The notes below the pieces were generated by a model. That model was not told the DNA's origin and ran no database searches. It saw nothing but the letters and a program-made list of their open reading frames with translations. Source: an uncultured Gammaproteobacteria bacterium (lineage in GTDB: Bacteria; Patescibacteriota; Microgenomatia; UBA10105; UBA927). Taken from it: 64,000 bases of DNA. Both the position numbers and the translations under genes were made by a program. The first letter of the stretch is position 1. Every line of letters begins with the position of its first letter. The stretch is taken from NCBI GenBank assembly GCA_964621305.1, contig CAZUOM010000001.1, forward strand, positions 229,448-293,447, given 5' to 3'. Below are positions 10,854 to 64,000 of the stretch, one piece after another.

Positions 10854-11972
10854 TCATTGCGCTTTTCCGACTGTCCCGTCGGTCTTAACCACCACCCCAA
10901 ACAGTTGTTCAAGCTTCAAAATTGCAAGTTTAATGTAGGAGGCGTGCGAAGCAAACATGACGTCTTGCGTTATCCCCTTCCAGATCAGGTTACCCCCGAC
11001 GCCTATCCAACTGGCAAGCCTGGCATCATCAGCAGCCGCCGGAACCATGACCTCTGCGGTTTGGGGTTTGGGAATAAACAGAAAAACAGACGTAACAGGC
11101 CAAGCTTGAGCCGTCATACGGAAGTCTCCTACAGTCACCTTATCTAAAATGGAAATCCCCATAATATCGTTGAGATCTTCAATGCCAATTCCTGTTTCTT
11201 CTTTTAGCTCGCGTTTAGCAGCAGTTATAGCTTGTTCTATAACAGCAACTGCGCCGCCTTTAGACCACCCGGTTCTCGTCTTATCAATCATGCCGCCCGG
11301 CAGTGCGCGCCCTCCCCTATCGCTTCGCTCAATCAAAACAACTTCAAATTTATTATCATGAATCCGGATAATGACCGGATCGGCAGCTTCATTTGGCCCC
11401 AGGAACCAATAAAACCCCGGGCCGGTCACGATGCCTTCGGGACTTGTGACCGCCTCTTTAAACATCGGATGAATCGGAGATCCGTCAGAGGCAAGGATCA
11501 ATCTGGCAAACCGTTCGGTCCTTGCTATTTTGGCCCCGTCTCCTCGATACGCTTCAATCGCGAGATTTTTCAGTTTATTGGATAATCTTCCGTCTTCGAC
11601 AATATTCCGGTTCTCGTGGAGGCCAACATAATAAGCCGGGCGCATTCCTGGAAAACCAACAAGTTCGTCGACGGGTCTTCCTGATTTAAACCACTGAAAA
11701 TATTCTTTTTCCGTCCAATGAAGGCCCTGGGCTGGGTAGCCGGCAAAGTTGGCTCGATCTTTCATCGCCTGAAGCACTTCTTGGACTAATTCCGTGTGGC
11801 CGTAGCGAAAATCAATGGGAACGAGGCGATCCTGCGCTTTCACAACTGGAAGGCCCTCGCGCCTAAGCCCAAGGTGTTCGAGGGGATCGGCGTATCGGGT
11901 TAAAAGATCGGGCGCGCTGGCGCTTTCGATTGCCATGGACCGAATTATAGCCCTAAATATGATTTTTGACAA
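10854..11972 (-). CDS. NUDIX hydrolase with N-terminal extra domain
   Basis: Nudix box 'GGRALPGGMIDKTRTGWSKGGAVAVIEQAITAAKRELKEETGI' (GX5EX7REUXEEXGU). Confidence 0.6.
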   Translation of the reverse strand: MSKIIFRAIIRSMAIESASAPDLLTRYADPLEHLGLRREGLPVVKAQDRLVPIDFRYGHTELVQEVLQAMKDRANFAGYPAQGLHWTEKEYFQWFKSGRPVDELVGFPGMRPAYYVGLHENRNIVEDGRLSNKLKNLAIEAYRGDGAKIARTERFARLILASDGSPIHPMFKEAVTSPEGIVTGPGFYWFLGPNEAADPVIIRIHDNKFEVVLIERSDRGGRALPGGMIDKTRTGWSKGGAVAVIEQAITAAKRELKEETGIGIEDLNDIMGISILDKVTVGDFRMTAQAWPVTSVFLFIPKPQTAEVMVPAAADDARLASWIGVGGNLIWKGITQDVMFASHASYIKLAILKLEQLFGVVVKTDGTVGKAQ

Positions 11973-14274: not shown

Positions 14275-14703
14275 ATGGCAGTCAAGAAAATCAAAACCGT
14301 TATTAAACTAAATCTCTCTGCAGGAGAGGCTACGCCGGCCCCCCCCGTTGGTCCCGCTCTCGGCCAGCACGGACTGCCGATCATGGAGTTTGTCAGAGCC
14401 TACAACGACAAAACAGGGAAGCTCAAAGGCCAAACCATTCCGGCAGTCATCACCGTCTACGAAGATCGGACGTTTAGTTTTATCACTAAGCTTCCTCCAG
14501 TTGCGGCAATGATCAAAAAAGTTCTCGGCATCGACAAGGGCGGAGGTAAAGCCGGCCGCGAGATTTCTGGCAAGCTCACCAAGGCACAGGTTGAAGACAT
14601 CGCAAAAGACAAACTAGCTGATTTGAATACCGAAGATGTTCAACAGGCGATGAAAGTGGTTGCGGGAACGGCAAAATCGATGGGGATTGAAACAGAAGCT
14701 TAG
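14275..14703 (+). CDS. rplK: 50S ribosomal protein L11
   Basis: 'IKLNLSAGEATPAPPVGPALGQHG' canonical L11. Confidence 0.9.
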   Translation: MAVKKIKTVIKLNLSAGEATPAPPVGPALGQHGLPIMEFVRAYNDKTGKLKGQTIPAVITVYEDRTFSFITKLPPVAAMIKKVLGIDKGGGKAGREISGKLTKAQVEDIAKDKLADLNTEDVQQAMKVVAGTAKSMGIETEA

Positions 14704-17503: not shown

Positions 17504-17756
17504 GCGTTTTTTCTCTCTTTTCGAATATAATCGAAAAGAGCAGCCTTGTCAAATCCTTACACGCCACCTCTCCCCCACCATAACGTAAGGCTATAGCCCA
17601 CCTGGGCTGCGCAAGCGAACACCAATGGGCAATTTTTATTACTTGCAGAATGGCCACGTTTATGAGATACTCTTTTTATCCTAAAGACCGTAGGTTCCGG
17701 TTATCAAGCGGAAGACCGCTTCAGCCGGATTAAAATCCTACCGAGGGAAAATTTAT

Positions 17757-17868: not shown

Positions 17869-17872
17869 CAAT

Positions 17873-18388
17873 ATGCCAACACAGAAAAAAATCGACACCG
17901 TCACTGATTTAACCGAAAAGCTTGCAAGAGCCAAGTCAGTCATGCTGACTGACTATCGCGGTTTAAAGCATAAACAGATGGAGGAGCTAAGGGGTGCGCT
18001 CAAAAAGGCCAATGCTGACTTTATGGTTGCTAAAAATCGGCTGTTTCTGCGCGCCCTTGGTAGTAAAGCAAAATCACTTAAAGAATATCTTAAGGATACA
18101 ACTGCAATCCTTTTTTCCTATGCAGATGGCGTCGCCCCACTCAAAGAACTCGTTAAATATTTCAAAGCAGCCGGTGTGGGCAAAACCAAAATTGGCCTTG
18201 TGGAAGGCCGGATGCTTTTAGAAGATGACCTCCTGCGATTGTCTACCTTGCCAACCCGTGACGTCTTGCTCTCACAGCTCGCTAGACAACTCAATGCCCC
18301 AATCCAAGGCTTACATTACACGCTCTCGCGGAATGTGAGAAGGCTGTTATACGCCTTGCAACAAATCCAAAAATCAAAATCCAAATGA
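17873..18388 (+). CDS. rplJ: 50S ribosomal protein L10
   Basis: 'KKIDTVTDLTEKLARAKSVMLTDYRGLKHKQMEELR' canonical L10. Confidence 0.85.
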   Translation: MPTQKKIDTVTDLTEKLARAKSVMLTDYRGLKHKQMEELRGALKKANADFMVAKNRLFLRALGSKAKSLKEYLKDTTAILFSYADGVAPLKELVKYFKAAGVGKTKIGLVEGRMLLEDDLLRLSTLPTRDVLLSQLARQLNAPIQGLHYTLSRNVRRLLYALQQIQKSKSK

Positions 18389-31977: not shown

Positions 31978-32580
31978 TTAGAGCATTTTTAGGCGGGGAA
32001 TGATGGCGGGGTCCGATATAATTAGTCTGGTCGCACCGGCATCCACAATCATCTTGGCTGAACTTTCGCTGATCCCTTCTTCTGCAGCAATGGTCAAATC
32101 CGGATATGCCTGATGGATGGCGCGGATTTTTTCGACATTTTCCGGCTGGAGCGTGAGGCCCCTGGCGCCCATCTCTGCCATCATCACTAGCACTACGTCG
32201 ATGGTTTCCAAAAACGGCTCGACTGCCTCGACTTCTGTGGCTCCGTCGATGGCCAGACCCACCTCAACGCTCTCTTTTTCTGTCTCATCAAGAAACAGCC
32301 GCGGGTCGTTGGCTTCGACGTGTGCTATCAGGCGTTTGAACCCGGCATCAACCAGCATCCGGATGTATTTTTCGGGGCTAGCGACCATAAGGTGTGCTTC
32401 GAAACTGACTGGTTTGACTAATTGGCCAAATTTGGCTAAGTCCAAAAATGTCTCCGCCGGCACCAGTGAGCCATCGGCGATATCAATCTGCAACCAGTCA
32501 ACGTAGGGAGCAACAATAGCAACTTTGCGCTCAATTGCGTCCCAGTCTTTTTCAAAAATAGTAGGAATGATGCCGATCAT
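31978..32580 (-). CDS. rpe: ribulose-phosphate 3-epimerase
   Basis: 'IIPTIFEKDWDAIE...WLQIDIADGSLVP...HLMV...VLVMMAEMGARGL' follows the Rpe TIM-barrel pattern (IxPSIL..D, DVMDGxFVP, HLMV, MSVxPGFGGQ-like). Confidence 0.7.
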   Translation of the reverse strand: MIGIIPTIFEKDWDAIERKVAIVAPYVDWLQIDIADGSLVPAETFLDLAKFGQLVKPVSFEAHLMVASPEKYIRMLVDAGFKRLIAHVEANDPRLFLDETEKESVEVGLAIDGATEVEAVEPFLETIDVVLVMMAEMGARGLTLQPENVEKIRAIHQAYPDLTIAAEEGISESSAKMIVDAGATRLIISDPAIIPRLKML

Positions 32581-32643
32581 TGTTAAACTGCTACATTGCT
32601 AAATTGTTAAAAAACAATGTAACCATGTAACAATGTAACAATT
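32581..32643. promoter_or_regulatory. AT-rich composite motif copy B (ctgctacattgctaaattgttaaaaaacaatgtaaccatgtaacaatgtaacaat) upstream of rpe
   Basis: Shares TACATTGCT / ATTGTTAA / AACAATGTAACAAT submotifs with 17757..17868 and 42078..42150. Confidence 0.5.
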
Positions 32644-32958
32644 TTATTTGTAGCTCTGCAAGGAGGAAGAAAGGGAGGCGTAGGACTCATCGAGTTTTTT
32701 GAAGGTCGCGTCATCAAGGAACCCCCTGCCCCAGGCAACAGCCAGATGTGTGCGGGTTTTGGCGACCTCGCCAACGGCTGCCTCAAGAAGCTCTTTAGTC
32801 TTGCTGCTGTCTTTCCTGGTTAGTCCATCGGCAACTGTTGCCGCGACTTTTTCGCTAGAGGCAACAAGATCGCTATCCTCATCAGGGAGGGCTTCCTGTA
32901 AATCCATCAGCGCCACGTAGGCCGCCTGCCAAAGCTTGTGTTCGTGAAAGTTGACCAT
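32644..32958 (-). CDS. four-helix-bundle protein (23S rRNA-intervening-sequence-protein-like)
   Basis: 'HKLWQAAYVALMDL' and overall helical 104-aa architecture typical of the family common in CPR genomes. Weak. Confidence 0.45.
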   Translation of the reverse strand: MVNFHEHKLWQAAYVALMDLQEALPDEDSDLVASSEKVAATVADGLTRKDSSKTKELLEAAVGEVAKTRTHLAVAWGRGFLDDATFKKLDESYASLSSSLQSYK

Positions 32959-42063: not shown

Positions 42064-42077
42064 ACATTCGGAGGATA

Positions 42078-42150
42078 ATTGTTACATTGCTACATGGCTA
42101 CATTGTTAAAAGTCAAAGCAATTTAACAATGTAACAATTTAACAATAATC
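42078..42150. promoter_or_regulatory. AT-rich composite motif copy C (ttgttacattgctacatggctacattgttaaaag...aacaatgtaacaatttaacaat) between divergent mreB and PEGA gene
   Basis: Same submotifs as copies A and B. Confidence 0.5.
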
Positions 42151-42187: not shown

Positions 42188-43381
42188 ATGGTGGAAAAGG
42201 TAAAAGAAGCAACTAGGAAACTGATACCTTTTATTGTATTTATACTCATTCTTACAATATCAATTGGCATCATCGCTTATGGCAAGGGATGGCGATTGGA
42301 CGTCACCAATAGGTCAGTCAAGCCCACCGGTCTTATTTCTGTAACATCACAACCAAGTGGCGCCCAGGTTTTCGTCGACGGAGCACTCAGAACGGCCACC
42401 AACAATGCATTCAATATCGACCCTGGCTGGTATACTGTTCGGATTGTTAAAGAGGGATATTTGCCTTGGGAAAAAAAGTTGCGCGTGCAAGGAGAAATAG
42501 CGGTTAAGGTCGAAGCGTTACTGCTGCCAGGGAGCCCCTCTCTTTCACCCCTGACGAATACTGGAGTTGTCAAACCGACACTCTCTCCCGACGGCACAAA
42601 AGTTGCCTATATCGCCACTTCATCGCTTCGCTCCTCAGTGCAAGCGCAGGCTGGTTTATGGGTGCTTGAGTTATCTGACCGGCCACTGGGGCCCAACAGA
42701 GATCCGCAACAACTTGCCCAAAATGATACCATTCTTTCATCGCCGGAGGCAGAGCTCCTTTGGTCACCGGATTCACGGGATCTCATGGTTAAAACAAAAA
42801 CCGCAGCCCATCTTTATACTGTCGGAAAAAGCCAATCCTTCGTTGATATTTCGGCAGTCACCGTTTCTGTCCTTGCAGGCTGGCAAGCCGAGGACAAAAA
42901 AAGGGAAAAACAGAAACTCGCAGGTTTCGCGCAAGAATTTGCCAACGTTGCGTCAAGTTCCGCAACCATCTTGTCCTTTAGCCCCGATGAAACCAAAATT
43001 CTCTACGAAGCCACGGCGCCAGCAACTATTCCAATAATTATCAAACCACCACTTATTGCATCAAACCCCACTGTTGAAACGCGAAATATCATACCAACAA
43101 AAATGTACGTCTATGACGCGAAAGAAGACAAAAATTTTCTCATTGAAAATTATCCGCGCAACGGAATTTGGTTCCCAACATCAAACCACTTTATAATATC
43201 TCAAAATAATAAAATAGATATCATGGAATACGACGGGGCTAACCGAGTCACACTCTACGCCGGTCCGTTTGTCGAGGGGTTTCTGGCCCCCTGGACCAGC
43301 GGAAACAGACTCGTCATCCTCACCAACCTCAACCCCGGCGCAAGCACCCTACCCAACCTGTATACGGTTAATTTGAGGTAA
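42188..43381 (+). CDS. PEGA-domain membrane protein with TolB-like beta-propeller region
   Basis: N-terminal TM. 'VTSQPSGAQVFVDGALRTATNNAFNIDPGWYTVRIVKEGYLPWEKKLRV' PEGA domain. 'SPDGTKVAYI' TolB-like repeats. Confidence 0.55.
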   Translation: MVEKVKEATRKLIPFIVFILILTISIGIIAYGKGWRLDVTNRSVKPTGLISVTSQPSGAQVFVDGALRTATNNAFNIDPGWYTVRIVKEGYLPWEKKLRVQGEIAVKVEALLLPGSPSLSPLTNTGVVKPTLSPDGTKVAYIATSSLRSSVQAQAGLWVLELSDRPLGPNRDPQQLAQNDTILSSPEAELLWSPDSRDLMVKTKTAAHLYTVGKSQSFVDISAVTVSVLAGWQAEDKKREKQKLAGFAQEFANVASSSATILSFSPDETKILYEATAPATIPIIIKPPLIASNPTVETRNIIPTKMYVYDAKEDKNFLIENYPRNGIWFPTSNHFIISQNNKIDIMEYDGANRVTLYAGPFVEGFLAPWTSGNRLVILTNLNPGASTLPNLYTVNLR

Positions 43382-45971: not shown

Positions 45972-45994
45972 GACTACGTTGTGAGGTTTATCTT

Positions 45995-46020
45995 TAGCTT
46001 CGCAAGGACTCTCCTTGCAA
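45995..46020. repeat. REP type 2 palindrome tagcttcgcaaggactctccttgcaa (copy a, upstream of RAYT-2)
   Basis: Palindromic core gcaagga(c/g)(t/a)ctccttgc. Copies at 46536..46561, 46742..46772, 49640..49669. Confidence 0.8.
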
Positions 46021-46048
46021 ATTATTTTCCTTCTGCTAGTATGGTTTC

Positions 46049-46744
46049 ATGCCCGCAAAACACGCAATCAAAGAGTTCGCGCCTCACGCCTACTACCACA
46101 TCTACAACCGCGGTGTAGAAAAACGCACCATTTTCCTCGACCAACAGGATCGCGCTGTCTTCCTTTCCTACCTCAAAGTGTATCTGCTCCCAAAAGAAAA
46201 AGACGTACTGCTCGGAGTTATTGCAAATCCAGAATCTTCATCCAAAGAAAAAGATCAGGCGCTGAAATTGTTGCGCCTCAATAACTTTGCTGATTCGCTT
46301 ACTCTGCTGGCGTTTTGTCTCATGCCCAACCATTTCCATCTCCTTATTAAACAAACAGACGCAATAACGATAGATCATTTTATGAGATCGTTCGGTACAC
46401 GGTACACGATGTATTTCAACCGGAAGTATCGTCGGGTAGGAGGATTGTTCCAAGGTGTCTATAAAGCCGTGCAAGTTGTAAGCAACGAACAACTTCTTCA
46501 CCTTTCTCGTTACATTCACCGCAACCCCATAGATCTAGCTTCGCAAGGAGAGTCCTTGCAAAACTTTAGCTACTCATCTTATCCCAAATATCTAGGAATA
46601 ACCCATACAGAGTGGGTCCATCCAGAAGATATTCTCTCCACTTTTCCAAAATCCGGCAAACGAGGTTACAAAGAATTTGTTGAAGGGCCATCAGATGAGG
46701 CCGGAAAACTGGCAATTGCCAAACTTATCATCGACGTTGACTAG
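46049..46744 (+). CDS. REP-associated tyrosine transposase (RAYT), paralog 2
   Basis: 'YHIYNRGVEKRTIF', 'MPNHFHLLIKQ' HUH motif. Highly similar to 18883..19578. REP type 2 lies upstream, at its stop codon, and inside the CDS (encoding LASQGESLQN). Confidence 0.7.
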   Translation: MPAKHAIKEFAPHAYYHIYNRGVEKRTIFLDQQDRAVFLSYLKVYLLPKEKDVLLGVIANPESSSKEKDQALKLLRLNNFADSLTLLAFCLMPNHFHLLIKQTDAITIDHFMRSFGTRYTMYFNRKYRRVGGLFQGVYKAVQVVSNEQLLHLSRYIHRNPIDLASQGESLQNFSYSSYPKYLGITHTEWVHPEDILSTFPKSGKRGYKEFVEGPSDEAGKLAIAKLIIDVD

Positions 46745-46772
46745 CTTCGCAAGGAGAGTCCTTGCGAAGCTA
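46742..46772. repeat. REP type 2 palindrome (copy c) overlapping the RAYT-2 stop codon
   Basis: tagcttcgcaaggagagtccttgcgaagcta, a perfect 31-bp palindrome apart from its centre. Confidence 0.8.
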
Positions 46773-48888: not shown

Positions 48889-50175
48889 TTACAGCTTAAG
48901 CATGTATTCAAGTTTTTCATCTCTCGGTTTGTTCCACACCAGTGCCATATTGAGGGTTTTTGTGACCAGATACTTTCTTACTAGTCGGTTGATGTCCTCT
49001 TTTGTAACCTTTTCTATCTTTTTGAGATATTCATCCAGCGTCAAAATGGGCTGACCGAAGACTTCCTGCCGTCCGTAAAACTCGGTCATAAACTCCGGGT
49101 CCTCAGCTTTAAATGCCATCATGGTTTTGATCCGTTTTTTGGCAACAGCAACTTCTTTCTCCGTTACTCCTTTCTCTCCCGCTTTTGCCAACTCTGCCAG
49201 TATTGCTTGTGTTGCTTGTGTTACTTTCTCTGTAGCCACACCAGCATAGATACTCCAGTACCCCACGTCTGCCCAGTTATTGGAGTTTGACCGGATGTGG
49301 TAACACAGTCCCCGCTTTTCGCGGATTTCCTTAAATAGCCGGCTGGTAAACGAGACACCCATAAGGAGATTAAAGACATTCCATGCAAACCGATCCTCGC
49401 TCCCCCGGCAAAACGTACGAAAGCCTAAAACCAGATGCGCCTGACTCGCATCGGGCTTGGTGACGACCTCAAGCTTGGGCTTACTTTGATGATTAACGAT
49501 CCTCTCCGCCTCCTCGGCGGACCCGCCGGTGAGGCTGGCAAACCACTCTTCTGTTTTCTGTCTGACGGCTGATGACTGACGACTGATGGCTCCTGCCAAC
49601 ACCACCACCATCCTACCAGGCGTGTACCAACGATCGTAGTAGCTTCGCAAGGACTCTCCTTGCAAAGCTAAGAGGCTTTCTGGTTCGCCGATTGTTCGCA
49701 TGCCGAGGCTAGTCGCTGGGTACATCATCGTGTGAAACGTTTCTTCTACTTTTGCTTCCGGCTCATCCTCGTAACGCTTCATTTCTTCGAGAATCACGCT
49801 GCGCTCCCGGTCGATGTGCTTCTGTTCGATTAATGGCGCCAGAGCAAGCTCGCGATTTATCTCTAGCGCTAGCTCCCAATCAGTGCTTAATACCTTGTTG
49901 TGGTAGTTGGTGATATCTATATCTGTATAGGCGTTTTGCAGCCCACCGATCCGCTCAATGATGTTGACGTCGTCGGTGGTAGGGTACCTTTTGGTTCCTT
50001 TGAAGACCATATGCTCCAAGAAATGGGAAACTCCGTTAATATCTTTGGTTTCGTAGCGGCTGCCCACCGCCACCATGACAGCCGTTGCCACACTGTTGAC
50101 GCCCTGCATTGGGACGAGAATGAGCCGAACGCCGCTTGGGAGGGTGGTTTTGTCGTAAGGGTTCCCTGTCTGCAT
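48889..50175 (-). CDS. M16-family (pitrilysin/insulinase-like) zinc peptidase
   Basis: 'HFLEHMVFKGT' inverted zinc motif HxxEH. 428 aa. Carries an in-frame REP type 2 copy (49640..49669, encoding LALQGESLRS) and a CTGATG-rich repeat (49541..49580). Confidence 0.8.
   Translation of the reverse strand: MQTGNPYDKTTLPSGVRLILVPMQGVNSVATAVMVAVGSRYETKDINGVSHFLEHMVFKGTKRYPTTDDVNIIERIGGLQNAYTDIDITNYHNKVLSTDWELALEINRELALAPLIEQKHIDRERSVILEEMKRYEDEPEAKVEETFHTMMYPATSLGMRTIGEPESLLALQGESLRSYYDRWYTPGRMVVVLAGAISRQSSAVRQKTEEWFASLTGGSAEEAERIVNHQSKPKLEVVTKPDASQAHLVLGFRTFCRGSEDRFAWNVFNLLMGVSFTSRLFKEIREKRGLCYHIRSNSNNWADVGYWSIYAGVATEKVTQATQAILAELAKAGEKGVTEKEVAVAKKRIKTMMAFKAEDPEFMTEFYGRQEVFGQPILTLDEYLKKIEKVTKEDINRLVRKYLVTKTLNMALVWNKPRDEKLEYMLKL
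49640..49669. repeat. REP type 2 palindrome (copy d) inside the M16 peptidase CDS
   Basis: tagcttcgcaaggactctccttgcaaagcta. Confidence 0.8.
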
Positions 50176-53690: not shown

Positions 53691-54929
53691 TCAAAAGAGG
53701 CACGCCGGAGCCTGGCCGGTCAATGATACAAGCTGAAAGGTATACCCAGGTAGAGACACGGTAGGCTTCCATCGGTCATCGGCGTCAGACCGGAACTTGA
53801 CTTCATAGGCTTGTCTTTTCTTTGGCACGAGAAAGTCTATTTCCTTATCGCGCTTGCGCAGAAACGTCACTTCTTCCCCCTTTTCCAACAACCGCTCCAA
53901 AACGTAGGACTCAACGGCAAAGCCCATACCCGTGGCAAAATCGTGTTTGGACTCAAAAAGCGAAAACATGGAACTCACGTATATCTTTTTGGCGCTGTTT
54001 TCTCTCGTGAGAGGCTTAGTGCTGTTGTACACGATATACACCAACCCCATCAGCTCCAGAACAGAAAGATATTTTTCCAATGTGACGGCTGTCGTGTTGG
54101 CAACGCGCGCTAGGTTGATGGTCGATACGACGCTACCGCTATTGGTTCGAAGGTAGGTAAACAGGGCATTTATAATCTGCGGTTTTTCTATTGCAAAATA
54201 GTTAAACGCATCCTGCGTGAGGCTCTGGCCGAGGACAGAAAGAATATATGCTTTCTGCTGGTCCGGCGTAAGCCGTACCATTTCCGGCAGTCTCCCCCAC
54301 GCAAGAAACTCGCGGAACCGGCTATTGAGCTCGGAAAGCATGTGTCCCCGCACGAACCGATCTTTTTCGTGTTGGACCGATGATGCGACGGAAACAAGCG
54401 AAGAACCGGTCAACCCCAGGTATTCACTAAATCCCAACGGAAAAAGGCGGTAGTGGAAAAATCTCCCCCCCAGGCTCTCTTCCATTCTCTGTTTGTAGGA
54501 GAGGCTCAGCGACCCGGTCAATACAAATTTTGTCTTCGGCCCTGTGTCGTAAAACTCCTTCACCACCCGTTCAAATCCATGGACAAATTGTATTTCGTCG
54601 AAAAAACAATAAACCGGGAGCCCCGGCGCGGCGATTTCTTTCAGAAAAAGATCATAGACCGACCAGATATCCTCACGGGTATCTCCCGGACCAAACTCAA
54701 AAAAAAGGATCTGGGTCGGCGGCACAGCCTTCTGACGGATGAGATCATCAACAACCTGTCGAAGAAGCACAGACTTGCCGGTCCGCCTGGGCCCGGTCAA
54801 AAAAATCATGGGGCGCGATCTCATATCTTTCCAAATGTTGCCAAATAGAGCTCTCCGGAACACAAAAGTCTCAAGCTGCCTTCCGGACCAATGGCGATTT
54901 TGAAAAATGACACGATCGCGTATGATCAT
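53691..54929 (-). CDS. AAA+ ATPase (AAA_14/DUF4143 family)
   Basis: Walker A 'LTGPRRTGKS', Walker B 'YCFFDEIQ'. C-terminal DUF4143-like region. Confidence 0.65.
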   Translation of the reverse strand: MIIRDRVIFQNRHWSGRQLETFVFRRALFGNIWKDMRSRPMIFLTGPRRTGKSVLLRQVVDDLIRQKAVPPTQILFFEFGPGDTREDIWSVYDLFLKEIAAPGLPVYCFFDEIQFVHGFERVVKEFYDTGPKTKFVLTGSLSLSYKQRMEESLGGRFFHYRLFPLGFSEYLGLTGSSLVSVASSVQHEKDRFVRGHMLSELNSRFREFLAWGRLPEMVRLTPDQQKAYILSVLGQSLTQDAFNYFAIEKPQIINALFTYLRTNSGSVVSTINLARVANTTAVTLEKYLSVLELMGLVYIVYNSTKPLTRENSAKKIYVSSMFSLFESKHDFATGMGFAVESYVLERLLEKGEEVTFLRKRDKEIDFLVPKKRQAYEVKFRSDADDRWKPTVSLPGYTFQLVSLTGQAPACLF

Positions 54930-56129: not shown

Positions 56130-58103
56130 CTAATCTCTATCAAGGCGGGGAAATCGGGCATCCGCTTGCCCCTTTAATGCCGCAAGCATGGGTCTAGTGA
56201 TATCATCAACTGCACTTTTTGCATTTGGATCTGGCTGGCCGGGTGATGCGGAAGAAAATGCATCATTTATTTTAAGTTGCGGGGCAAAATCATCCGTGTC
56301 GCAATATTCTGCGTATGCCGCAAAACAATCGGCGACGTAGGCTGTTAATGCAGTTAATTGCTCTTTCGTAATGCCAACGTTGTGCGCGCTTTCAAAAAAC
56401 TCCGTGGCTTTTTCACGATAAGTATCCTGCCCGTATATGGATATGTTTTGTTTACAGAGCAATTTCATATACTGTACTATAAATTCACTCTGGTGAAAAA
56501 TGTCACTCGTTTTTTTGTGCGGTGGTCGATAATTAAGTGGTGATTCAGATAATATATCTATATCAGAAAATCCAGTAAACATTTTTCTTAAATCCGTTTG
56601 CAATTGGGCGAGTGATTTTTTCGTATTCAACTGTCCTTCTATAACATAACTGACTCCAATAGAATACAACGTTTTTAGCATCATATATTTCACCTGATCG
56701 GTAAATTGATCTCTGGTCTGGCTATGTTTGAGTGCCATGAGTGTGTTTTCAGCGCCAAATTCACGAATTTGCGCGACATATATTCTCTTGCGCAGGTGTT
56801 GTTTTGTATGCTCTACCAATAAGCGCGCTGATAGCTCTATCAGCTTTTTTCTATACTTCTGTGTATCCTCTCCTTCAAATGCACTACTATACAAGTCTTT
56901 TTCGTGTTTGCGAAGATAGTCCCGGTGCCGGATGACAATTAGCTTTTTTACCGCTTCGGCACGCGGATCTCCTCTTTCGTAAAACAGGCGGTAGGCCGTG
57001 ATGGCTCCCACGGCAAGGCTCTGGGCATATTGAGGTATCTGACTGGCACAAACGATATATTCTGCAATATTTTGATTACTTACGATAATTTTTAATGCTC
57101 TTCCTAAAGCATAGGATGCATCATCTCGATAGCCGGTGTTGAGTGAAGATGTGAGTAGCAACTCCAAATCCTCTGTATCGCTATCTTCAAATCCTTCAAA
57201 TATTTTTGAGGTGAACGTGGTATGGGCATGGTCAATCTCGGAAAGCCGCCTGGGAGCAAATTGATCCATGGCTTCCAATGCGCGTATAAAAACAGATGTA
57301 TTGATGAATTGTTCGTCCCGGCTATAAGTCTTCGTCGCCCGTATCTCTTTTGCTGATCCGGCGAACTTTGGGCCTATGTACCGGCCGACGATGACGCTTT
57401 TTCCCTGAAAAAATCGAATGATTTGCGCTAATGAAAAAGCGGTCTGAAGCCTGCGATATCTATATTTGTCCTCCGGTGTTGGGTCATCATAAAAATCAAA
57501 TTGGAATTTTTCCTTCACATGGTAGGCGCCATAGACCGTATCGATCCCAAGGCGCTTGGCGACCTGGGCAACCGCCGTTTCCCACTGATATTCCCACGCT
57601 CTGCTCCGGTCCCATGCCTGGCCTTTGATCAAGTTTTGGGTAAAGGCGTCTTTTGCAAAATCAAAGACCCCCTCGCGCACGACTGAATCCTCCATCGAGC
57701 CCAATGGACTATTCAAATATCTATGAACTATACTTTCAAGCTCTGTGAGCAGTCTGTTGTCTGCAAGTGATTCTGGGTCTTTTCGTGCGTCGTCGATAAG
57801 ATGCTGCCACAATTCTGTTTGTGCAAGAATTTTAGCAAATGCATTAAGTTCTACTGAGGCTGCCTGGTCTATGAGGCGGAGCACTTGTTGATGCTTTTCT
57901 TGTTCTATTGCCAATCTATCGGGGTTTGTTTGTTTTAATATTTCAATATCCGATTCGTCAGGATACAGTGCATCTTTCAGTGGCTTTATTATCCGTTCAC
58001 TAAAGATATACCGCTTTGCTCGGATATCTCCGGATACCTGTGTGGCAAAGTGATACCAAATATCCCCGCCCGCCGGCAACGGTAAAACTTTTTGTTCACT
58101 CAT
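56130..58103 (-). CDS. large hypothetical protein (657 aa), operon member
   Basis: No motif recognised. Start ATGA-overlaps the stop of the upstream 73-aa ORF. Confidence 0.5.
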   Translation of the reverse strand: MSEQKVLPLPAGGDIWYHFATQVSGDIRAKRYIFSERIIKPLKDALYPDESDIEILKQTNPDRLAIEQEKHQQVLRLIDQAASVELNAFAKILAQTELWQHLIDDARKDPESLADNRLLTELESIVHRYLNSPLGSMEDSVVREGVFDFAKDAFTQNLIKGQAWDRSRAWEYQWETAVAQVAKRLGIDTVYGAYHVKEKFQFDFYDDPTPEDKYRYRRLQTAFSLAQIIRFFQGKSVIVGRYIGPKFAGSAKEIRATKTYSRDEQFINTSVFIRALEAMDQFAPRRLSEIDHAHTTFTSKIFEGFEDSDTEDLELLLTSSLNTGYRDDASYALGRALKIIVSNQNIAEYIVCASQIPQYAQSLAVGAITAYRLFYERGDPRAEAVKKLIVIRHRDYLRKHEKDLYSSAFEGEDTQKYRKKLIELSARLLVEHTKQHLRKRIYVAQIREFGAENTLMALKHSQTRDQFTDQVKYMMLKTLYSIGVSYVIEGQLNTKKSLAQLQTDLRKMFTGFSDIDILSESPLNYRPPHKKTSDIFHQSEFIVQYMKLLCKQNISIYGQDTYREKATEFFESAHNVGITKEQLTALTAYVADCFAAYAEYCDTDDFAPQLKINDAFSSASPGQPDPNAKSAVDDITRPMLAALKGQADARFPRLDRD

Positions 58104-58321
58104 AATGATGTTTGTAAGACACGGAAAAATTGCGTGCAGGTCTTTTTGAGTTCAATGATCGCCTGAGCACCTGAAATAATATTATCGCTGTATTGATTTC
58201 GAATTGTTTGAAGATTTTTTTGAAAGGCAATATGCGCGGAAAGGTCATGCGGAGAAACAATAATCCCGTGGTTTATTGCCGTACCGGTCATTCCATCGGA
58301 CATATACGGCAAGTATAGCAC
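58100..58321 (-). CDS. small hypothetical protein (73 aa), operon member
   Basis: Translationally coupled between the 560-aa and 657-aa genes. Confidence 0.35.
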   Translation of the reverse strand: MLYLPYMSDGMTGTAINHGIIVSPHDLSAHIAFQKNLQTIRNQYSDNIISGAQAIIELKKTCTQFFRVLQTSL

Positions 58322-58335
58322 AAAAAAATCGCCTA

Positions 58336-60018
58336 CTACGATTTTTTCTGTGTTTGAATGAAAAAACCATCATCTCGTATCTCAAAGCCGGTAACAGAAA
58401 CATTCTGAAGATTCGTATTGAGATACCACATGGCCGCCGGAAGCAACCAACTTGAGGCAATACCTGCAAGTGAAAAAATATCTTCATCCGTTGCACCCTT
58501 CAGTTCATCAGGAAACGCTTCGCGCATTTGATCGGAAACTATTTCTAAACTATCCACGCGTATGCCAAGTTTATCATGATCGTCATTTACTAAAACAATG
58601 CGTCCAAAAAAACGTTCAACGTCAATCTCAATAGTTGCTCTTTTTTCTGATTTACGTTCATCGAAAATAATATTCATTTTCTTTTTATCATCATCTTTTA
58701 ATGCTTCATCAATTATGTCGCGACTGATGAAATACCCATCAGATTCGGGAGATGCATCGATGGCGGCTACTATATCCGGCTGTTTTTCCGGCACGTCCAT
58801 GTTACCGAGTACCGTAAAACCATCTTTGGTAACTTGAAAACGGGTAAATTCAATCTGCTGTCCCTCCGATTGCCTGACAAACAGCTCAGGCAAACGGGTA
58901 AACAGAAGGTGGATGCCCTCCGTCGTTTCCGGTATGTCAGAAAATTCATCTTTTTCTCCTTCTGCCATTCGTGCCAGCGGCCGTTCCATGCGTTTACCAA
59001 TGCGTATGGCCAAATCCAATATCTTTTTCACTATCGGATTGAGGACTAATTCTGTCTCGATTCCAACTTTTGAAGCATTCGAGTTGCGCACCACTACTTC
59101 TACGGAGAGGTTATTGACAAACCTCTGAAGCCTGGATAACGGCGTACCGGAAAGATTGAGCCCAAAATCCGCGTGTGCGGTGATTTCTGACGGGTTCTTC
59201 TGCGTAAGCGTGAGATGAAACTTCTTCAGATGGTTGCCCAGTATGGCTTCTTCTACTATCTCAGATACTGATTTTCCTGCGTTATCAACTTGCAATAATC
59301 GAATGCCAATGGCGGCAGCGGTATTGACGCTGTATTCTGTAAGCCCGAGCGGAATGGTGAACTCGTAGGGCAACCGTATGGTAGGCTCTTTTTCTTCTTT
59401 CTTCATTCGTTTGGGCATTTCGGGATCATCTCGGACCATCAAATCAAATACTTTGCTGTCGCCAATGTCCGGAGGCACAAAATCTTTCCCAACGCCTAAT
59501 TTTAGACGAATGGGTAGTTCTGTTGATGATATTTGCTGTATGATTTTTTCTCCTGCTTCATCTGAGAGACGATCAAAACATGGAATGACAATTTCTATCC
59601 CTTCCAAGTTAGCTGCATGAAGAAGTCGGCCCAGTTCTCCCATGGGATCAACACTAAACTCATTGGTCCACTCTTCACGCTGTATGCGATCTGTCTCTGA
59701 TACATCAATCCGATGATTTTTTTGTATGACATCTCTATCATCTGTGAAAGACCAGAAGATATGGTGTGTGAAGGGGTTAAAAAATTTACTATACGATATA
59801 TCATCCTGCGGAGAAAGAATAACCGGAATCGCTAAAATTCCATCTGGGTGTACAGATTTCAGGCCGATGGTCGCGTCGCGAGCTTCGAGTAATTTGCTCA
59901 TTGATCGTTCTCTCTGCCGAAGGCTGCCGCGAAGAAAGGAAATGGGGGCGGCAGAGCCTATCCACTCAGACCCGGCAGGATCTTCTGTGGGGATTTCAGG
60001 CACTAGAGAAGAAGGCAT
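58336..60018 (-). CDS. large hypothetical protein (560 aa), operon member
   Basis: No motif recognised. Its first about 17 codons are duplicated at 60813..60860. Confidence 0.5.
   Translation of the reverse strand: MPSSLVPEIPTEDPAGSEWIGSAAPISFLRGSLRQRERSMSKLLEARDATIGLKSVHPDGILAIPVILSPQDDISYSKFFNPFTHHIFWSFTDDRDVIQKNHRIDVSETDRIQREEWTNEFSVDPMGELGRLLHAANLEGIEIVIPCFDRLSDEAGEKIIQQISSTELPIRLKLGVGKDFVPPDIGDSKVFDLMVRDDPEMPKRMKKEEKEPTIRLPYEFTIPLGLTEYSVNTAAAIGIRLLQVDNAGKSVSEIVEEAILGNHLKKFHLTLTQKNPSEITAHADFGLNLSGTPLSRLQRFVNNLSVEVVVRNSNASKVGIETELVLNPIVKKILDLAIRIGKRMERPLARMAEGEKDEFSDIPETTEGIHLLFTRLPELFVRQSEGQQIEFTRFQVTKDGFTVLGNMDVPEKQPDIVAAIDASPESDGYFISRDIIDEALKDDDKKKMNIIFDERKSEKRATIEIDVERFFGRIVLVNDDHDKLGIRVDSLEIVSDQMREAFPDELKGATDEDIFSLAGIASSWLLPAAMWYLNTNLQNVSVTGFEIRDDGFFIQTQKKS
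59971..60018. repeat. direct repeat copy 1 (about 48 bp) flanking the VapBC cassette
   Basis: cccggcaggatcttctgtggggatttcaggcactagagaagaaggcat versus 60813..60860 with 4 mismatches. Confidence 0.85.
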
Positions 60019-60132
60019 AAAGTAATTGTAGCATATTGCCGCTAGCGCGGCTCTTCCTCATATTAGAATCTGTATTCTAATATGTATATTCTCCTTGACA
60101 ATGCATAGACTGTCTGGTATCGTTGCTCTACC

Positions 60133-60387
60133 ATGAACACCAAAATCATCCCTATCACAGAATTCATCCGCAGGTTCGGAGTCTATAGCCAGCTTCTTCC
60201 TACGCTTTCCGGCCTTATTTTAACCCGTGAGGGCCGCCCGTTTGCGACACTCAGGGCTACGCCGGAGGAAAAAAACCGGCAACTTCTCTCTTTTTTCGGT
60301 CTCTGGAAAGGAACGGACTTGGATAGCGATCTCCTCTGGAAAACCGTTCGCAAACGCCGCAACCGCAAGGCCCTTATCTCTCTCTAA
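60133..60387 (+). CDS. Phd/YefM-family antitoxin
   Basis: 'KIIPITEFIRRFGVYSQLL...LILTREGRPFATL' Phd/YefM-like N-terminus. 4-nt gap to vapC. Confidence 0.5.
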   Translation: MNTKIIPITEFIRRFGVYSQLLPTLSGLILTREGRPFATLRATPEEKNRQLLSFFGLWKGTDLDSDLLWKTVRKRRNRKALISL

Positions 60388-60390
60388 GCT

Positions 60391-60822
60391 ATGACGTATC
60401 TTTTAGATACTTCGGTCATTGTGGGATTATTACGAAGAAACCAGGCAGTGCGTGATTTCCTTGCAGCCCATCAAGACGACACGTTCACCGCCAGTACACT
60501 TTGCGTTTTTGAAATTACCAGCGGTATCTATCGTGCACCGATCAAGGATCAAGCCAGGTATCAAAGCCAGGCAAAGGCAGTATTCGGAACTCTTACGGAA
60601 CTATTGCCATTTACCACAGAGTACGCGGATATTGCCGGCGCAATCCAGGCAGAGCTTGCCAAAAAGGGTAACCTCATTGATGATATCGATATCCTTATTG
60701 CCGCAACCGCACTGGCCAATCACGCCACGCTCGTAACGCTCAATATGCGACATTTCCAGCGTATCAAGGGACTTGCCATTGTCTCCCCCACTGAGAAACG
60801 CCACCACTCGGGCCCGGCATGA
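60391..60822 (+). CDS. vapC: PIN-domain VapC toxin
   Basis: 'YLLDTSVIVGLL' (Asp-5), '...FEI...', 'DILIAATALANHATLVTLNMRHF' PIN acidic residues. Confidence 0.7.
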   Translation: MTYLLDTSVIVGLLRRNQAVRDFLAAHQDDTFTASTLCVFEITSGIYRAPIKDQARYQSQAKAVFGTLTELLPFTTEYADIAGAIQAELAKKGNLIDDIDILIAATALANHATLVTLNMRHFQRIKGLAIVSPTEKRHHSGPA

Positions 60823-60860
60823 TCTTCTGTTGGGATTTCTGGCACAAGAGAAGAAGGCAT
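60813..60860. repeat. direct repeat copy 2 flanking the VapBC cassette (overlaps the vapC stop)
   Basis: See copy 1. Creates a decoy ATG plus 17 codons of the 560-aa gene N-terminus. Confidence 0.85.
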
Positions 60861-60866
60861 CAGCAC

Positions 60867-61682
60867 TTATTTTGAAGTATTTTCCAAAAATTTCTCGAAT
60901 ACATCCTTTTGTGTAGCTTCCGGAGCTGCAAAAAATTCTTCTGCGTTCTGAAGATTAAACGCCTTCACCAGGGCTTTCTGCATCATGTCCAATCTTTCTG
61001 CAGTGGTTCCCGGACGAAAATTTTCTGCTAGTCCCGGTGCCCAATTTCTCAATAGATCGTACACTGTCCGATGTCCTACGTGTCTATCATAGTTATCAAG
61101 CATTTTTACAGAAAGCGCCGCAAGATCTCCTATTGCCTGCCGACGGTCCTCGCTTAAGTTTGCTCCAGTCTGATCAACTGACTCACCCTGACATCGAACG
61201 TTGAGTATGTTGATAAACAATTGACGCTCCTGCTGTGACATGCCAACCACCTTTCCCGGTTCGGTTCCAGCCTTTTTGAAAGCAATATCTGCTTGTTTAT
61301 AAAATCTCTCAATCAGTTGTTTTCGAGCTCTTTCATTTGCGGCTTCTTCTGCTTTAGATTCTCTCTCCGTTTTCCATCTCGCGCCCAACAATTTTTCTGC
61401 TTGTAATTTTTCTACCCTCGTTGCGTTTCTAAGAAACGCTTCTGAAGTAACCCGAAGATATTTATCTATTGTACGTGCTTCACCTAAGAAAGGCGCCTTA
61501 TATCCTTCCGCACGCTCTTCTTTTTTAGGAGCTAATCTAGCGACCCTCTCTGGATCCAAAGTTTTCCTCGGGTCTGTTAACGCCGCATCTGCAACAAACG
61601 CTGGCGCCTCTGGCTTCAGGGGTCCAGGACCTTTATCATGGGTTAAAGCTCTCAATGCTCCTTCTGTATCTATTGATGCCAT
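60867..61682 (-). CDS. hypothetical protein (271 aa), operon member
   Basis: No motif. Charged/helical. Confidence 0.45.
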   Translation of the reverse strand: MASIDTEGALRALTHDKGPGPLKPEAPAFVADAALTDPRKTLDPERVARLAPKKEERAEGYKAPFLGEARTIDKYLRVTSEAFLRNATRVEKLQAEKLLGARWKTERESKAEEAANERARKQLIERFYKQADIAFKKAGTEPGKVVGMSQQERQLFINILNVRCQGESVDQTGANLSEDRRQAIGDLAALSVKMLDNYDRHVGHRTVYDLLRNWAPGLAENFRPGTTAERLDMMQKALVKAFNLQNAEEFFAAPEATQKDVFEKFLENTSK

Positions 61683-61743
61683 ATTTTTGCCTTATCTATT
61701 CTGAATTTTAGTATCAAAAATAATCCCTTGTCAATGCCCAATT

Positions 61744-62181
61744 TCACGCGGTTGTGGCGGAGGCAACCGTTGCCCAGTCGTCCTGGTCGATAGCCGTCAA
61801 GACTGACTGCACGCGTGCTTTCTCTGCCTCGTCAGGGGCAGTATTGAGTATATCCAGCCGCTCTTGGAAATTGGCTTTCACGAGGTCTTTTTTCATCGCC
61901 AGCAGCTTGGCCCTTACGTAATCGTCAAAGTCCGGAAACTTTTGCTTCAGAAACTCCATGGCCTGGGGTTTGGTTGCAGGATCTGCCGAAAGCTTATTAA
62001 ACTCGTCAATATCCTCCTCGGTCATATAAAGCGGTAGGTCTTCTGCTGCCATGGCACTAAAGGCACCCTCTAACAGCTCGTTGGTGTAGCCTTCCCGTTC
62101 TTCGGGCGTCAAGTGGGACAGGCCCAACAGCTTAAACAAATCAAGTTCTTCCAGTGTTACTTTTTTGGGTTGATCATCCAT
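61744..62181 (-). CDS. acidic hypothetical protein (145 aa), operon member
   Basis: No motif. pI clearly acidic (many D/E). Confidence 0.4.
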   Translation of the reverse strand: MDDQPKKVTLEELDLFKLLGLSHLTPEEREGYTNELLEGAFSAMAAEDLPLYMTEEDIDEFNKLSADPATKPQAMEFLKQKFPDFDDYVRAKLLAMKKDLVKANFQERLDILNTAPDEAEKARVQSVLTAIDQDDWATVASATTA

Positions 62182-62221
62182 ATGTATCTATTAAAAAGCC
62201 AAAAGCCGCTGTTGTCAAGGA

Positions 62222-63997
62222 TTACTTTCTGATGAGGCTAAGCGGTATCTTAAGTTTGGCTTCCTTACCTACATAGTGCCAGAGCTCCTTTAGTTTTCTC
62301 ACTGCATCGGCTTTTGAAGTAGCATCGCCTGTTTGAGCAGATGCAACGAGGCTAGCGATTTTATCCTGATCCAATCCCGCGGGAGTAATAAGTCCCTCTA
62401 GTGTCGCAATAACATTCGTATTCTTTACCGCTTTTGCCATAGCAAGGGAACGATTCCAGTACTCAACATTGTCACTATTGGCCTTGGCCATCTCTCCTAA
62501 TATGGTATTGGTGTCTTTCCAAAGATGCGGATCGCTGACTCCTTTCTCCCTCATGTAGGCAAAAACCGTATCGCCGACGGTTTTATTGACCGTCACGGTG
62601 TCAAAGGTCGGAGCGATCGGAGCGGTCGGAGGCGCCGGGGGAACCTCAACTCTCTCCTGGAGCTTCTGATACACGTCTTTTTGCTTCATTTTCTCCAACT
62701 CCTCAGGCGTAAACGTTCTGTCTTCTGGCACAGGCGGAGCCGCTGGTGCTTCTTGGGCAGGTACTTCTCCTAGTCGAATCGCCCAGTCAAAAACAGAAAA
62801 TACATTAATGGCCTTTGCTGCGGCCGTCAAGCTCCTGCCTGTGACATAGGCAGCTTCCAGCCCAAACCTATTGATGTCACCTCTCCTAGACTCGGAGAGG
62901 ATCTGCGTAAGCTCATTGGCAAGTTCTTTATCTTCCGCTGCCGGGCTATCTTTAAGTTGCGCAATAGCACTTAGACTCATGTCTCGAAAATCCCTATACA
63001 ATTTATTGAGCCTATCTATCCTACTATTGGGACTTTGCAGGGTTTCTGGATTTTCTATGGATTTGAGATAATCAGTTTCACGGAAGTACCCCACCTCCCT
63101 ATCCCGACCTAATTGTCTGGTCATTTTAACAAGATTTAATCGAAAGAGTCGTGCGTCATGAGATGTTGAATCCAAGCCTTCTCTCACCGCAGCCTTAATG
63201 TCCTCAATATTAAAGTCAGAATTGAGTACTTCGTTGATCATTCCCCTCACTCTTTGGTTTTCCGCTCCGCGTTCAATGGAAAAGGCTCGGACGGCTAGCT
63301 GACCCGCGCGGACCTCCGTGCCCCGGCCAAGGGCGCCAAAAAACCTGCCCACCGTCTCCAATCGCCCCCGCCACCCCTTGTTTTCACTCTTTTTAAACGA
63401 CACATCCTCGGCCATCATACTCGCGAGCCCCCGTCCCCTCCACATTTCTGAAGCGCCACGCGCTCCCGAAAGAGCCGCTCCTGCCCCTGCGGCAACGAGG
63501 AGGCCTGCGCCACCGGTTAAAATCATGGCGTAATCTTTTGCCAGTGCGGTACCCACGCCAACTGCCGTGGCACCGACGAGGTCTTTGCGGCTAGCCCACA
63601 TTCCGGCAACGAAATTCTTGGTGAATTCGTAAATCTTCTTCTGACGAGGAGAAGGTGTTTCCGGAGCCACTGTTGCTCCGCCCAGTTCCGGTTTGACAAA
63701 GCGCTTATCCCACTCAGCCCGCCACCGGGTCGCTATCTCCCGCAACCATTGGCCCTTCTGAATTTGCCCTTTGCGTTCTGCAACAGGCAGATCTCTCGTC
63801 CTCCTCCTATCATCTTCCAAAGATCCCTGAAAAGCTTTACCTAGTGGTATTAATAAGGTGAGTCTGTCCTTTGCCCGCTCTATTATGCCTTTACGGGCCG
63901 CTACGGCACGAGATGTCAACTGGGCAACACTATCTTCAGACGGTTTGGTTGCCACAGGCTTCTTTTCGCCACGAGTCTTCTTCTCAGATACCGGCAC
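62222..63997 (-). CDS. large membrane-associated hypothetical protein with glycine-zipper hydrophobic segment (partial, continues beyond the window)
   Basis: 'LVGATAVGVGTALAKDYAMILTGGAGLLVAAGAGAALSGARGA' GxxxG-rich TM segment. Pro/Ala-rich linker 'PAQEAPAAPPVPE...VPPAPPTAPIAPT'. The ORF reaches the window edge. Confidence 0.45.
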   Translation of the reverse strand: MPVSEKKTRGEKKPVATKPSEDSVAQLTSRAVAARKGIIERAKDRLTLLIPLGKAFQGSLEDDRRRTRDLPVAERKGQIQKGQWLREIATRWRAEWDKRFVKPELGGATVAPETPSPRQKKIYEFTKNFVAGMWASRKDLVGATAVGVGTALAKDYAMILTGGAGLLVAAGAGAALSGARGASEMWRGRGLASMMAEDVSFKKSENKGWRGRLETVGRFFGALGRGTEVRAGQLAVRAFSIERGAENQRVRGMINEVLNSDFNIEDIKAAVREGLDSTSHDARLFRLNLVKMTRQLGRDREVGYFRETDYLKSIENPETLQSPNSRIDRLNKLYRDFRDMSLSAIAQLKDSPAAEDKELANELTQILSESRRGDINRFGLEAAYVTGRSLTAAAKAINVFSVFDWAIRLGEVPAQEAPAAPPVPEDRTFTPEELEKMKQKDVYQKLQERVEVPPAPPTAPIAPTFDTVTVNKTVGDTVFAYMREKGVSDPHLWKDTNTILGEMAKANSDNVEYWNRSLAMAKAVKNTNVIATLEGLITPAGLDQDKIASLVASAQTGDATSKADAVRKLKELWHYVGKEAKLKIPLSLIRK

Positions 63998-64000
63998 CTC

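Follow-up and report, generated by a model that had tools for sequence, protein, structure and literature searches.

Probable insertion of a vapBC cassette with duplication of a host gene start in an uncultured member of the Microgenomatia

The stretch of DNA analyzed here (the window) comprises 64,000 nucleotides (nt) of contig CAZUOM010000001.1 (positions 229,448 to 293,447 of the forward strand; GenBank assembly GCA_964621305.1) from an uncultured bacterium placed by GTDB in the Microgenomatia, and it contains a small vapBC-type toxin-antitoxin cassette lying between two genes of an operon that encode proteins of 271 and 560 amino acids (aa). The cassette is flanked by direct repeats, both of which represent the start of the 560-aa gene, and the probable explanation is a recombinase-free insertion of the cassette that duplicated the 5' end of this gene. 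In such an event, a naked cassette of ~785 base pairs (bp), made up of a promoter/operator, an antitoxin gene and a PIN-domain toxin gene, would have entered the junction of two co-transcribed genes by non-site-specific recombination, and the first 57 nt of the 560-aa gene would have ended up in duplicate, with the right copy as a dead remnant and the left copy heading the working gene. An earlier note on this DNA had read the repeats as the footprint of cassette insertion at an operon junction, and this reading is now supported by five lines of internal evidence. The right copy has kept its place just past the 271-aa stop codon, where a translationally coupled operon partner would be expected to lie, and the left copy heads an intact gene; VapC lacks its native stop and runs into the right copy, unlike its homologues; homologous cassettes share nothing past the vapC stop, which places the right edge of the cassette beside the repeat; the locus has neither a mobility gene nor terminal inverted repeats, and no attC-like fold is seen; and eight other non-identical cassettes of the same family show a like footprint at different host genes.

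The repeat pair and the cassette it encloses

The features on which the argument draws are given below from left to right, with the basis of each assignment in parentheses.

58336..60018, minus strand: ORFan gene for the 560-aa protein, downstream in the operon and with a duplicated 5' end (list of open reading frames (ORFs); no Pfam, NCBIfam or PHROG match)
59962..60018, minus strand: left repeat copy, the ATG and codons 2-19 of the working 560-aa gene (repeat search, alignment)
60019..60058: left end of the insert, ~40 nt, with no counterpart in homologous cassettes (no match in relatives)
60025-60033, minus strand: extended -10 box TGcTACAAT inside the inserted DNA, its last base 6 nt from the ATG of the 560-aa gene (consensus match)
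60059..60084: perfect palindrome CATATTAGAAT-ctgt-ATTCTAATATG with 11-nt arms, the presumed VapB/VapBC operator (z = -10 versus shuffles)
60095-60100 and 60118-60123, plus strand: promoter-like site for vapBC, TTGACA, 17 nt, TATCGT (10/12 consensus matches)
60101-60096 and 60079-60074, minus strand: face-to-face promoter-like site aimed at the 560-aa gene, TTGTCA, 16 nt, TAGAAT (10/12 matches)
60133..60387, plus strand: 84-aa antitoxin in the vapB position, of a conserved family without a Pfam model and with a weakly Phd/YefM-like N-terminus (conserved pairing with VapC)
60391..60822, plus strand: VapC PIN-domain toxin, 143 aa, its stop TGA (60820-60822) lying in the right copy (PF01850, E=1.9e-13)
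60720..60860, minus strand: putative 46-codon decoy ORF from the remnant ATG, antisense through the 3' end of vapC, with its stop at 60720-60722 (ORF list)
60790..60803: junction stretch of 14 nt from the expected vapC end to the right copy (homologue lengths)
60804..60860, minus strand: right repeat copy, a remnant start of the 560-aa gene that lies 6 nt past the stop of the 271-aa gene (repeat search, alignment)
60867..61682, minus strand: 271-aa ORFan gene, the upstream operon gene (ORF list; no Pfam, NCBIfam or PHROG match)

A repeat search and alignment of both copies give an ungapped direct repeat of 57 nt that is identical at 51/57 positions (89%), with mismatches (left/right) at 59968/60810, 59970/60812, 59978/60820, 59989/60831, 59998/60840 and 60004/60846. 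The copies lie 842 nt apart and have a longest run of perfect identity of 14 nt; similarity is lost abruptly at both flanks, and gapped extension beyond 59962/60804 adds none. This is the sole pair of copies within the window, and a chance repeat was rejected on an expectation of ~1.7e-16 for at least 51/57 identities at any pair of positions within 2 kb. On the minus strand, the repeat starts exactly at the ATG of the 560-aa gene. Three of the six differences between the copies are silent third-position changes (codons 5, 7 and 10), one corresponds to P14H and two fall in codon 17 (S17P), and third codon positions hold 4/6 of the total. The earlier note had described a repeat of about 48 bp with 4 mismatches that contained the ATG and about 17 codons; the repeat is real and does contain the gene start, but those 48 bp (59971-60018) are the inner part of a repeat that extends 9 nt further and has 6 mismatches in all, and the alignment covers 19 codons. 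The right copy is separated from the TAA of the 271-aa gene (60867-60869) by the 6 nt GTGCTG, rather than by the 4 nt counted earlier, whereas the overlap of this copy with the vapC stop and the decoy ORF of 46 codons (ATG at 60860) were correctly described. Neither copy folds better than shuffled sequences on either strand (z -0.24 to +0.89).

The toxin scores 51.5 bits against PF01850 (cut-off 23.6), and residues D6, E41 and D100 are invariant in an alignment of the window VapC with 14 homologues; the best NCBIfam models are those of tRNA(fMet)-specific VapC, all scoring below their cut-offs. The 14 closest homologues are 133-134 aa long and end at the position of window residue 133. The window protein lacks the native stop, and its ORF continues for 10 more codons to end inside the right copy, so that residues 134-143 (60790-60819) form a non-native tail, TEKRHHSGPA, in which the repeat begins in codon 138. 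The stop that ends this tail owes to the T at 60820, one of the repeat mismatches (the left copy has G at 59978), and by our own reading of the sequence VapC would run on for ~35-40 more codons with the left-copy base. Where the homologues end, a run of five C residues (60785-60789) is followed by an out-of-frame TGA (60792-60794), which at a guess is the former vapC stop. One extra C in this run would restore a 134-aa VapC (...VSPH*), and the missing stop could have arisen by a homopolymer frameshift instead of truncation at the junction.

The pair had been labeled phd-vapC in the earlier note, and the toxin half of this label holds, whereas the Phd half is unproven, the antitoxin having no Pfam match even at E<=10. 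The antitoxin ORF ends 3 nt before the vapC ATG, antitoxin homologues (49-70% identical) immediately precede VapC homologues in over 30 loci, and homologous genes of 84-85 aa precede VapC homologues in loci L003-L007 and in most of 44 loci from metagenomes. PF02604 (Phd/YefM) is matched by one of six antitoxin relatives (E=0.011), and the top matches of the antitoxin profile in the PDB are YefM/Phd-type antitoxins at sub-threshold values (Rv2865, E=1.8; VapB46, E=0.62); hhalign probabilities are 1.9% versus Phd and 0.3% versus YefM, computed with approximate reference sequences. A single-sequence AlphaFold model of the antitoxin was unusable (predicted local distance difference test (pLDDT) 55). 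The module is of an ordinary VapBC type, and its antitoxin belongs to a family for which Pfam has no model. A plasmid or phage vehicle for the cassette was considered and rejected, as no antitoxin homologue was found in plasmid, phage or IMG/VR collections.

The genes of the insert are vapB and vapC only. No integrase or transposase is present in the insert or among the neighbors within ~10 kb, a repeat search reveals no inverted repeat joining the insert ends, an Rfam search gives no match at the locus, and no intrinsic terminator-like site lies between the 271-aa and 560-aa genes. Homologous cassettes have in common a promoter/operator, vapB and vapC; their shared upstream features are ATGTAT/AATACAT operator motifs (related to the window palindrome) ahead of vapB, a TTGACA box, and a -10 box at a distance of 7-9 nt from the ATG; the plus-strand promoter site keeps its position. 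In the window, the cassette proper would extend from about 60059 to about 60790, with a right edge (~60790-60803) that abuts the right copy, 14 nt lying between. The presumed operator palindrome overlaps the -10 of the outward, minus-strand promoter-like site, and the two opposed promoter-like sites have their -35 box in common.

Flanking repeats around related cassettes

Contigs from Joint Genome Institute (JGI) metagenomes were scanned with an alignment of the antitoxin family, which yielded 44 loci from groundwater-type samples. In a flank scan of the 33 loci with sufficient flanking sequence (28 of them non-identical), the 450 nt upstream of vapB were compared with the region from -60 to +450 around the vapC end, and a Smith-Waterman score of at least 15 was taken as a footprint. 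Direct repeats at or above this threshold flank the cassette in 10/33 loci, or 9/28 non-identical ones (the window cassette included), and range in length from 15 to 57 nt. The window repeat scores highest (42), followed by L012 (27), L009 (25.5), L011 (23.5), L033 (21.5) and L038 = L040 (21), with lower scores for L042 (16), L014 (15) and L024 (15). All of these repeats are close to the cassette (31-185 nt from the vapB ATG and -25 to +195 nt from the vapC end), unlike low-scoring matches, which are scattered. Displaced comparisons in the same loci reach a score of at least 14 in 2/42 cases, both from one locus (Fisher p=0.003), random pairs of the same geometry in the window genome reach at least 15 in 5/150 cases (p=2e-5), and pairs taken across loci have a mean score of 9.8 and a 99th percentile of 16.8. 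A previous repeat scan of five homologous loci had shown no flanking repeats, and the pattern emerged in the larger set.

The repeats of the related loci consist of the following.

L012: the last 11 codons and stop of an AAA ATPase gene, with three differences (two silent, and TGA to TAG)
L038/L040: the last 8 codons and stop of an ABC-2 permease gene; the VapC ORF (138 aa) extends into the remnant and terminates at the TAA there
L042: a Gly-rich C-terminus and stop, with insertions and deletions
L009 and L033: 3'-proximal coding sequence, with the native C-terminus stranded downstream of vapC
L011: the ATG and ~8 codons of RNase J, which puts a decoy start ahead of the cassette
L014 and L024: 15-mers without mismatch, in non-coding DNA

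With the exception of the two non-coding cases, the repeats are ends of local host genes, and the target differs from locus to locus. Repeat length in the relatives ranges from 15 to 38 nt, and the ends of the cassette vary as well; in L033 (1078-1242), the cassette is cut inside vapB, so that the antitoxin gene is 5'-truncated (55 aa) and lacks the N-terminal ~29 residues and the promoter, with VapC intact. Since the target differs at each locus and the cassette ends are not fixed, the recombination appears to be illegitimate rather than site-specific.

The host operon and other repeats in the window

The gene row that contains the cassette encodes proteins of 886, 145, 271, (vapBC), 560, 73 and 657 aa, all host genes being co-directional, with gaps of 40, 61, (6), 14 and -4 nt. 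This row of six ORFans occupies 56130-64000 of the window and continues in L001 (2274-4934), and none of the six proteins has a match in Pfam, NCBIfam or PHROG. For the 560-aa and 271-aa proteins, no homologue was found among 5.8e9 clustered proteins in a word-indexed search (the 560-aa protein finds itself only), and an exhaustive phmmer search of 1.84e9 representatives with the 560-aa protein also returns itself only. A tblastn-confirmed scan of GTDB genomes gave no relative of the 271-aa protein, and a degenerate back-translated DNA pattern for the N-terminus MPSSLVPEIPTED had no match in metagenome or genome contigs. With ORFans on both sides of the cassette, no empty site was found in a relative.

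The proposed insertion would have split the operon, with the opposing 0.8-kb unit cutting the 560-aa gene off from the operon promoter. The 560-aa gene would now be transcribed from the inserted DNA, the likeliest source being a leaderless mRNA from TGcTACAAT, and the outward promoter overlapping the presumed VapB operator would be a second candidate driver; operon read-through from upstream would be antisense to vapBC. A cassette-borne promoter may have taken over the downstream half of a split operon, and insertion of this kind can rewire operon expression with neither neighbor destroyed. A TANNNT box lies 6-8 nt before the ATG in 18/51 window genes (6 nt being the commonest spacing; e.g., 53691..54929, 46049..46744 and 42188..43381) and a Shine-Dalgarno core is present in 8/51, which suggests that leaderless mRNAs are widespread in the window genome. 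The ATG of the remnant has no TANNNT-type box and probably depends on coupling to the 271-aa gene.

Outside this operon, the window bacterium encodes MreB, a serpin and glycosyltransferases, and several other kinds of repeats are present. Three collinear repeat blocks (4384-4526/9099-9241, 143 nt, 95%; 6740-6782/9250-9292, 43 nt, 95%, terminator-like; and 6803-6896/10865-10958, 94 nt, 78%) surround the serpin gene (5593-6717) and a NUDIX gene (10854..11972), with different genes between the blocks in each copy. Two of the three blocks are gene 3' ends, and the arrangement may be another gene-end duplication tied to gene insertion. Palindromic repeats of 31 nt, CTAGCTTCGCAAGGAGAGTCCTTGCGAAGCT, occur in both orientations at gene borders (45994-46024, 46535-46565, 46741-46771 and 49639-49669), with a weak copy at 19066. 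A tandem array of ~9 copies of an 8-nt unit, AGTAGCTT, is found at 14694-14765, at the end of ORF 14275..14703. Clusters of short repeats of the ATTGTTACA/TTGTAACAAT type, direct and inverted, occupy three intergenic regions (17743-17879, 32579-32656 and 42077-42109) and may be binding sites for a shared regulator.

Routes of insertion, alternatives and known systems

Two ILLEGITIMATE routes fit the insertion, in-situ duplication and homology-facilitated import, of which the latter is slightly favored, at somewhat short of an even chance. In homology-facilitated import (by homology-facilitated illegitimate recombination or single-crossover integration), the donor would have been a diverged relative with the cassette already in place ahead of a 560-like gene; with the 560 gene as the homologous anchor, the broken vapC end would have joined illegitimately at codon 19 of the resident gene, and the two copies would be the donor and recipient alleles. 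This route is favored by the repeat boundaries, which fall exactly at the ATG in the window and at the stop codon, or 1 nt beyond it, in L012, L038 and L042, such boundaries being expected if similarity between alleles fades outside coding sequence, and by a lean of the differences between the window copies towards silent sites (third-position bias p=0.10, not significant). It is also favored by L011, in which an L012-type cassette has kept the final 45 nt of its former neighbor, the AAA ATPase gene, and again lies beside RNase J. L011 and L012 are ~92% identical genomes with a common cassette and RNase J and with unrelated left flanks; a comparison of L011 2298-2400 with L012 2355-2400 and 3299-3347 places the decoy RNase J start ahead of the ATPase remnant, and identity falls from ~92% to 67% in the intergenic stretch. 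In L027 (1330-1355, compared with L038 2409-2434 and L007 ~2650-2673), the VapC tail YSSASS* corresponds to the ABC-2 tail allele present in other genomes and differs from that of the adjacent gene in L027 itself (SFSTSS*), and in L008 and L033 the cassettes are 91% identical, as against 73% for the shared upstream neighbor gene; both observations add to the case for import.

Several points weigh against the insertion as reconstructed here and against import as its route. The polarity of the event and the pre-insertion state are inferred, with no empty site or donor locus found, and the promoter assignments are consensus matches only. The third-position bias does not reach significance, the silent:replacement ratio of ~7:6 pooled over the loci (a hand tally) was judged to fit in-situ duplication equally well, and RecA-dependent exchange between the copies in their present form would have had only a short stretch of perfect identity, 14 nt, to work with. 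The ABC-2 tail repeat may in part be a shared motif, given its unusual DNA conservation (100% over 33 nt between L007 and L038, in a region that is 68% identical overall, with a recurrence in the paralogue at L038 749-771). Among the family footprints, those of L014 and L024 are only 15 nt long and non-coding, and those of L011 and L033 are A/T-rich.

In-situ duplication, in which staggered breaks or a template switch would have produced two identical copies, the remnant then drifting and the functional copy changing only silently, is a real possibility that we rate below import. The same pattern has been described for restriction-modification units (repeats that vary in length and exceed 30 bp, no mobility genes, fusions at the junction; PMC2853133, PMC3874152), the variation in repeat length (15-57 nt) and cassette ends across the family fits it, and the hand tally of silent and replacement changes is compatible with it; it requires a coincidence or a strong selective filter, however, to place the junction at the ATG in the window and at the stop (+/-1 nt) in L012, L038 and L042, and it leaves unexplained how L011 carries the flanks of an earlier site and landed beside the same gene. 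Everything other than these two routes is, even taken together, unlikely. If vapBC were the older resident and the right copy had been added later, by gene conversion or a partial, local duplication involving the start of the 560-aa gene, the other duplicated gene-end segments of the window (4384-4526/9099-9241 and others) would provide precedents, and assigning the polarity does need an outgroup; such a history is nevertheless improbable, as it fails to account for a VapC that, unlike its relatives, lacks a stop exactly where the copy starts, for the position of the copy 6 nt after the 271-aa stop in a tightly packed co-directional row, or for the like bracketing of eight other cassettes of the family. 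That the copies are attachment sites of a small integrative element moved in trans by a site-specific recombinase is very improbable. Direct repeats do flank the unit, and a recombinase could be encoded beyond the 64-kb window, but the repeat differs at every family locus and is always a local host gene end, the distance between cassette and repeat varies from 31 to 185 nt, the L033 cassette is cut inside vapB, and there is no identical core longer than 14 nt, no secondary structure and no integrase within ~10 kb. The source is a metagenome-assembled genome, in which an assembly artefact or a strain chimera has to be considered, and the earlier note had proposed a check for assembly duplication. 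NCBI contig SBBN01000039.1 (GCA_005239695.1) is 100% identical and spans both junctions, as does a separate Logan assembly of run SRR6943130 that is also 100% identical and spans both copies; one of these two assemblies comes from a different pipeline. The 6 differences and the 842-nt spacing let short reads place the copies unambiguously, and a de Bruijn assembler should have needed the junction k-mers to exist in the reads, which leaves an artefact with almost no probability. Mobile elements of known types were also considered and rejected: a transposon, insertion sequence (IS) or miniature inverted-repeat transposable element (MITE), given the absence of terminal inverted repeats, the long duplication (57 nt, and 15-38 nt in the relatives) and the variable cassette ends, and an integron cassette or attachment site, given that the repeats are unstructured, locus-specific host coding DNA with no integrase nearby.

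Toxin-antitoxin pairs rank among the most mobile prokaryotic genes and mostly have no mobility function, and their entry into chromosomes has largely been inferred from patchy distribution. At the window locus and at eight further non-identical loci of the family, junctions left by such insertion events can still be read, and the footprints show variable gene-end duplications, variable cassette ends and toxin ORFs fused to host-derived tails. It is conceivable, as a tentative extension, that members of this vapBC family move between groundwater bacteria as a naked two-gene unit, carrying along host-gene fragments from beside the previous site as short homing flanks. If so, the fragments would direct recombinase-free integration beside the same conserved gene in a new genome, where gene starts or ends would be duplicated and in some cases joined to VapC, and this would be a general, footprint-leaving mode of mobility for toxin-antitoxin modules. 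The mechanism is testable through empty sites and donor alleles in the same metagenomes. The single locus is of moderate interest; its recurrence across the family raises that interest and could make toxin-antitoxin mobility testable. The findings also connect toxin-antitoxin mobility with homology-facilitated recombination and with the "long target duplication" known from restriction-modification units.

Insertion with long target duplication was reportedly described for restriction-modification gene units by Nobusato et al. in 2000. Like those units, the vapBC cassette is a small addiction-type unit without a mobility gene that lies between host genes and is bracketed by repeats of more than 30 bp of a unique target, with repeat lengths that vary between events and gene fusions at the junction. 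The repeats around restriction-modification units exceed 30 bp (45-420 bp in published tables), mobility genes are absent, junction fusions occur, and the long target duplications are found mostly in naturally competent species (PMC2853133, PMC3874152). Of the criteria of Furuta et al. (2010; PMC2853133), the window locus shows repeats longer than 30 bp (57 nt, 51/57), an insert shorter than 20 kb, no mobility gene and a repeat that is not multicopy within the 64 kb (two copies); its cargo is not a restriction-modification system, and the likeness is therefore one of insertion mode and not of cargo family. Unlike restriction-modification units, the cassette carries a type II toxin-antitoxin pair and no DNA-breaking enzyme, several family members have a repeat boundary at a start or stop codon, and an empty site was not found here. 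Single-crossover integration of a molecule with partial homology has been demonstrated experimentally to duplicate part of the homologous locus (PMC3240628), and the window locus resembles such homology-facilitated events in that one end would be anchored by homology to the resident gene and the other joined illegitimately. In contrast to the laboratory events, with duplications of 109-950 bp, the duplication here is 57 nt long at 89% identity.

Transposons and IS elements have a duplication length that is fixed for each element, terminal inverted repeats and a transposase. The window locus resembles transposon, IS and MITE insertions in the direct target repeats that flank the insert, and differs from them in the length (57 nt) and variability of these repeats and in the absence of inverted repeats; target site duplications of transposons are typically shorter than 10 bp, and those of IS1630 are 19-26 bp, according to Furuta et al. 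(2010; PMC2853133). In its gene content, the cassette is similar to other type II VapBC systems, with a PIN toxin gene 3 nt after a small antitoxin gene and a palindromic, presumed operator at the promoter, and departs from typical VapBC in its NCBIfam scores below cut-off, its antitoxin without a Pfam model and the 10-residue VapC tail from host-derived DNA. Chromosomal integrons contain promoter-bearing toxin-antitoxin cassettes that are bounded by structured attC sites and arranged in arrays beside an integrase. The window cassette is likewise a small repeat-bounded unit, but its repeats are unstructured host coding DNA in an ordinary gene row. The presence of vapBC pairs interspersed in other gene cassettes is already known (PMC4390879), and a search of a limited library of papers found no description of a long-target-duplication footprint for vapBC. 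Apart from the cargo and the empty site, of which none was found, the insertion mode matches the long-target-duplication class in every testable criterion.

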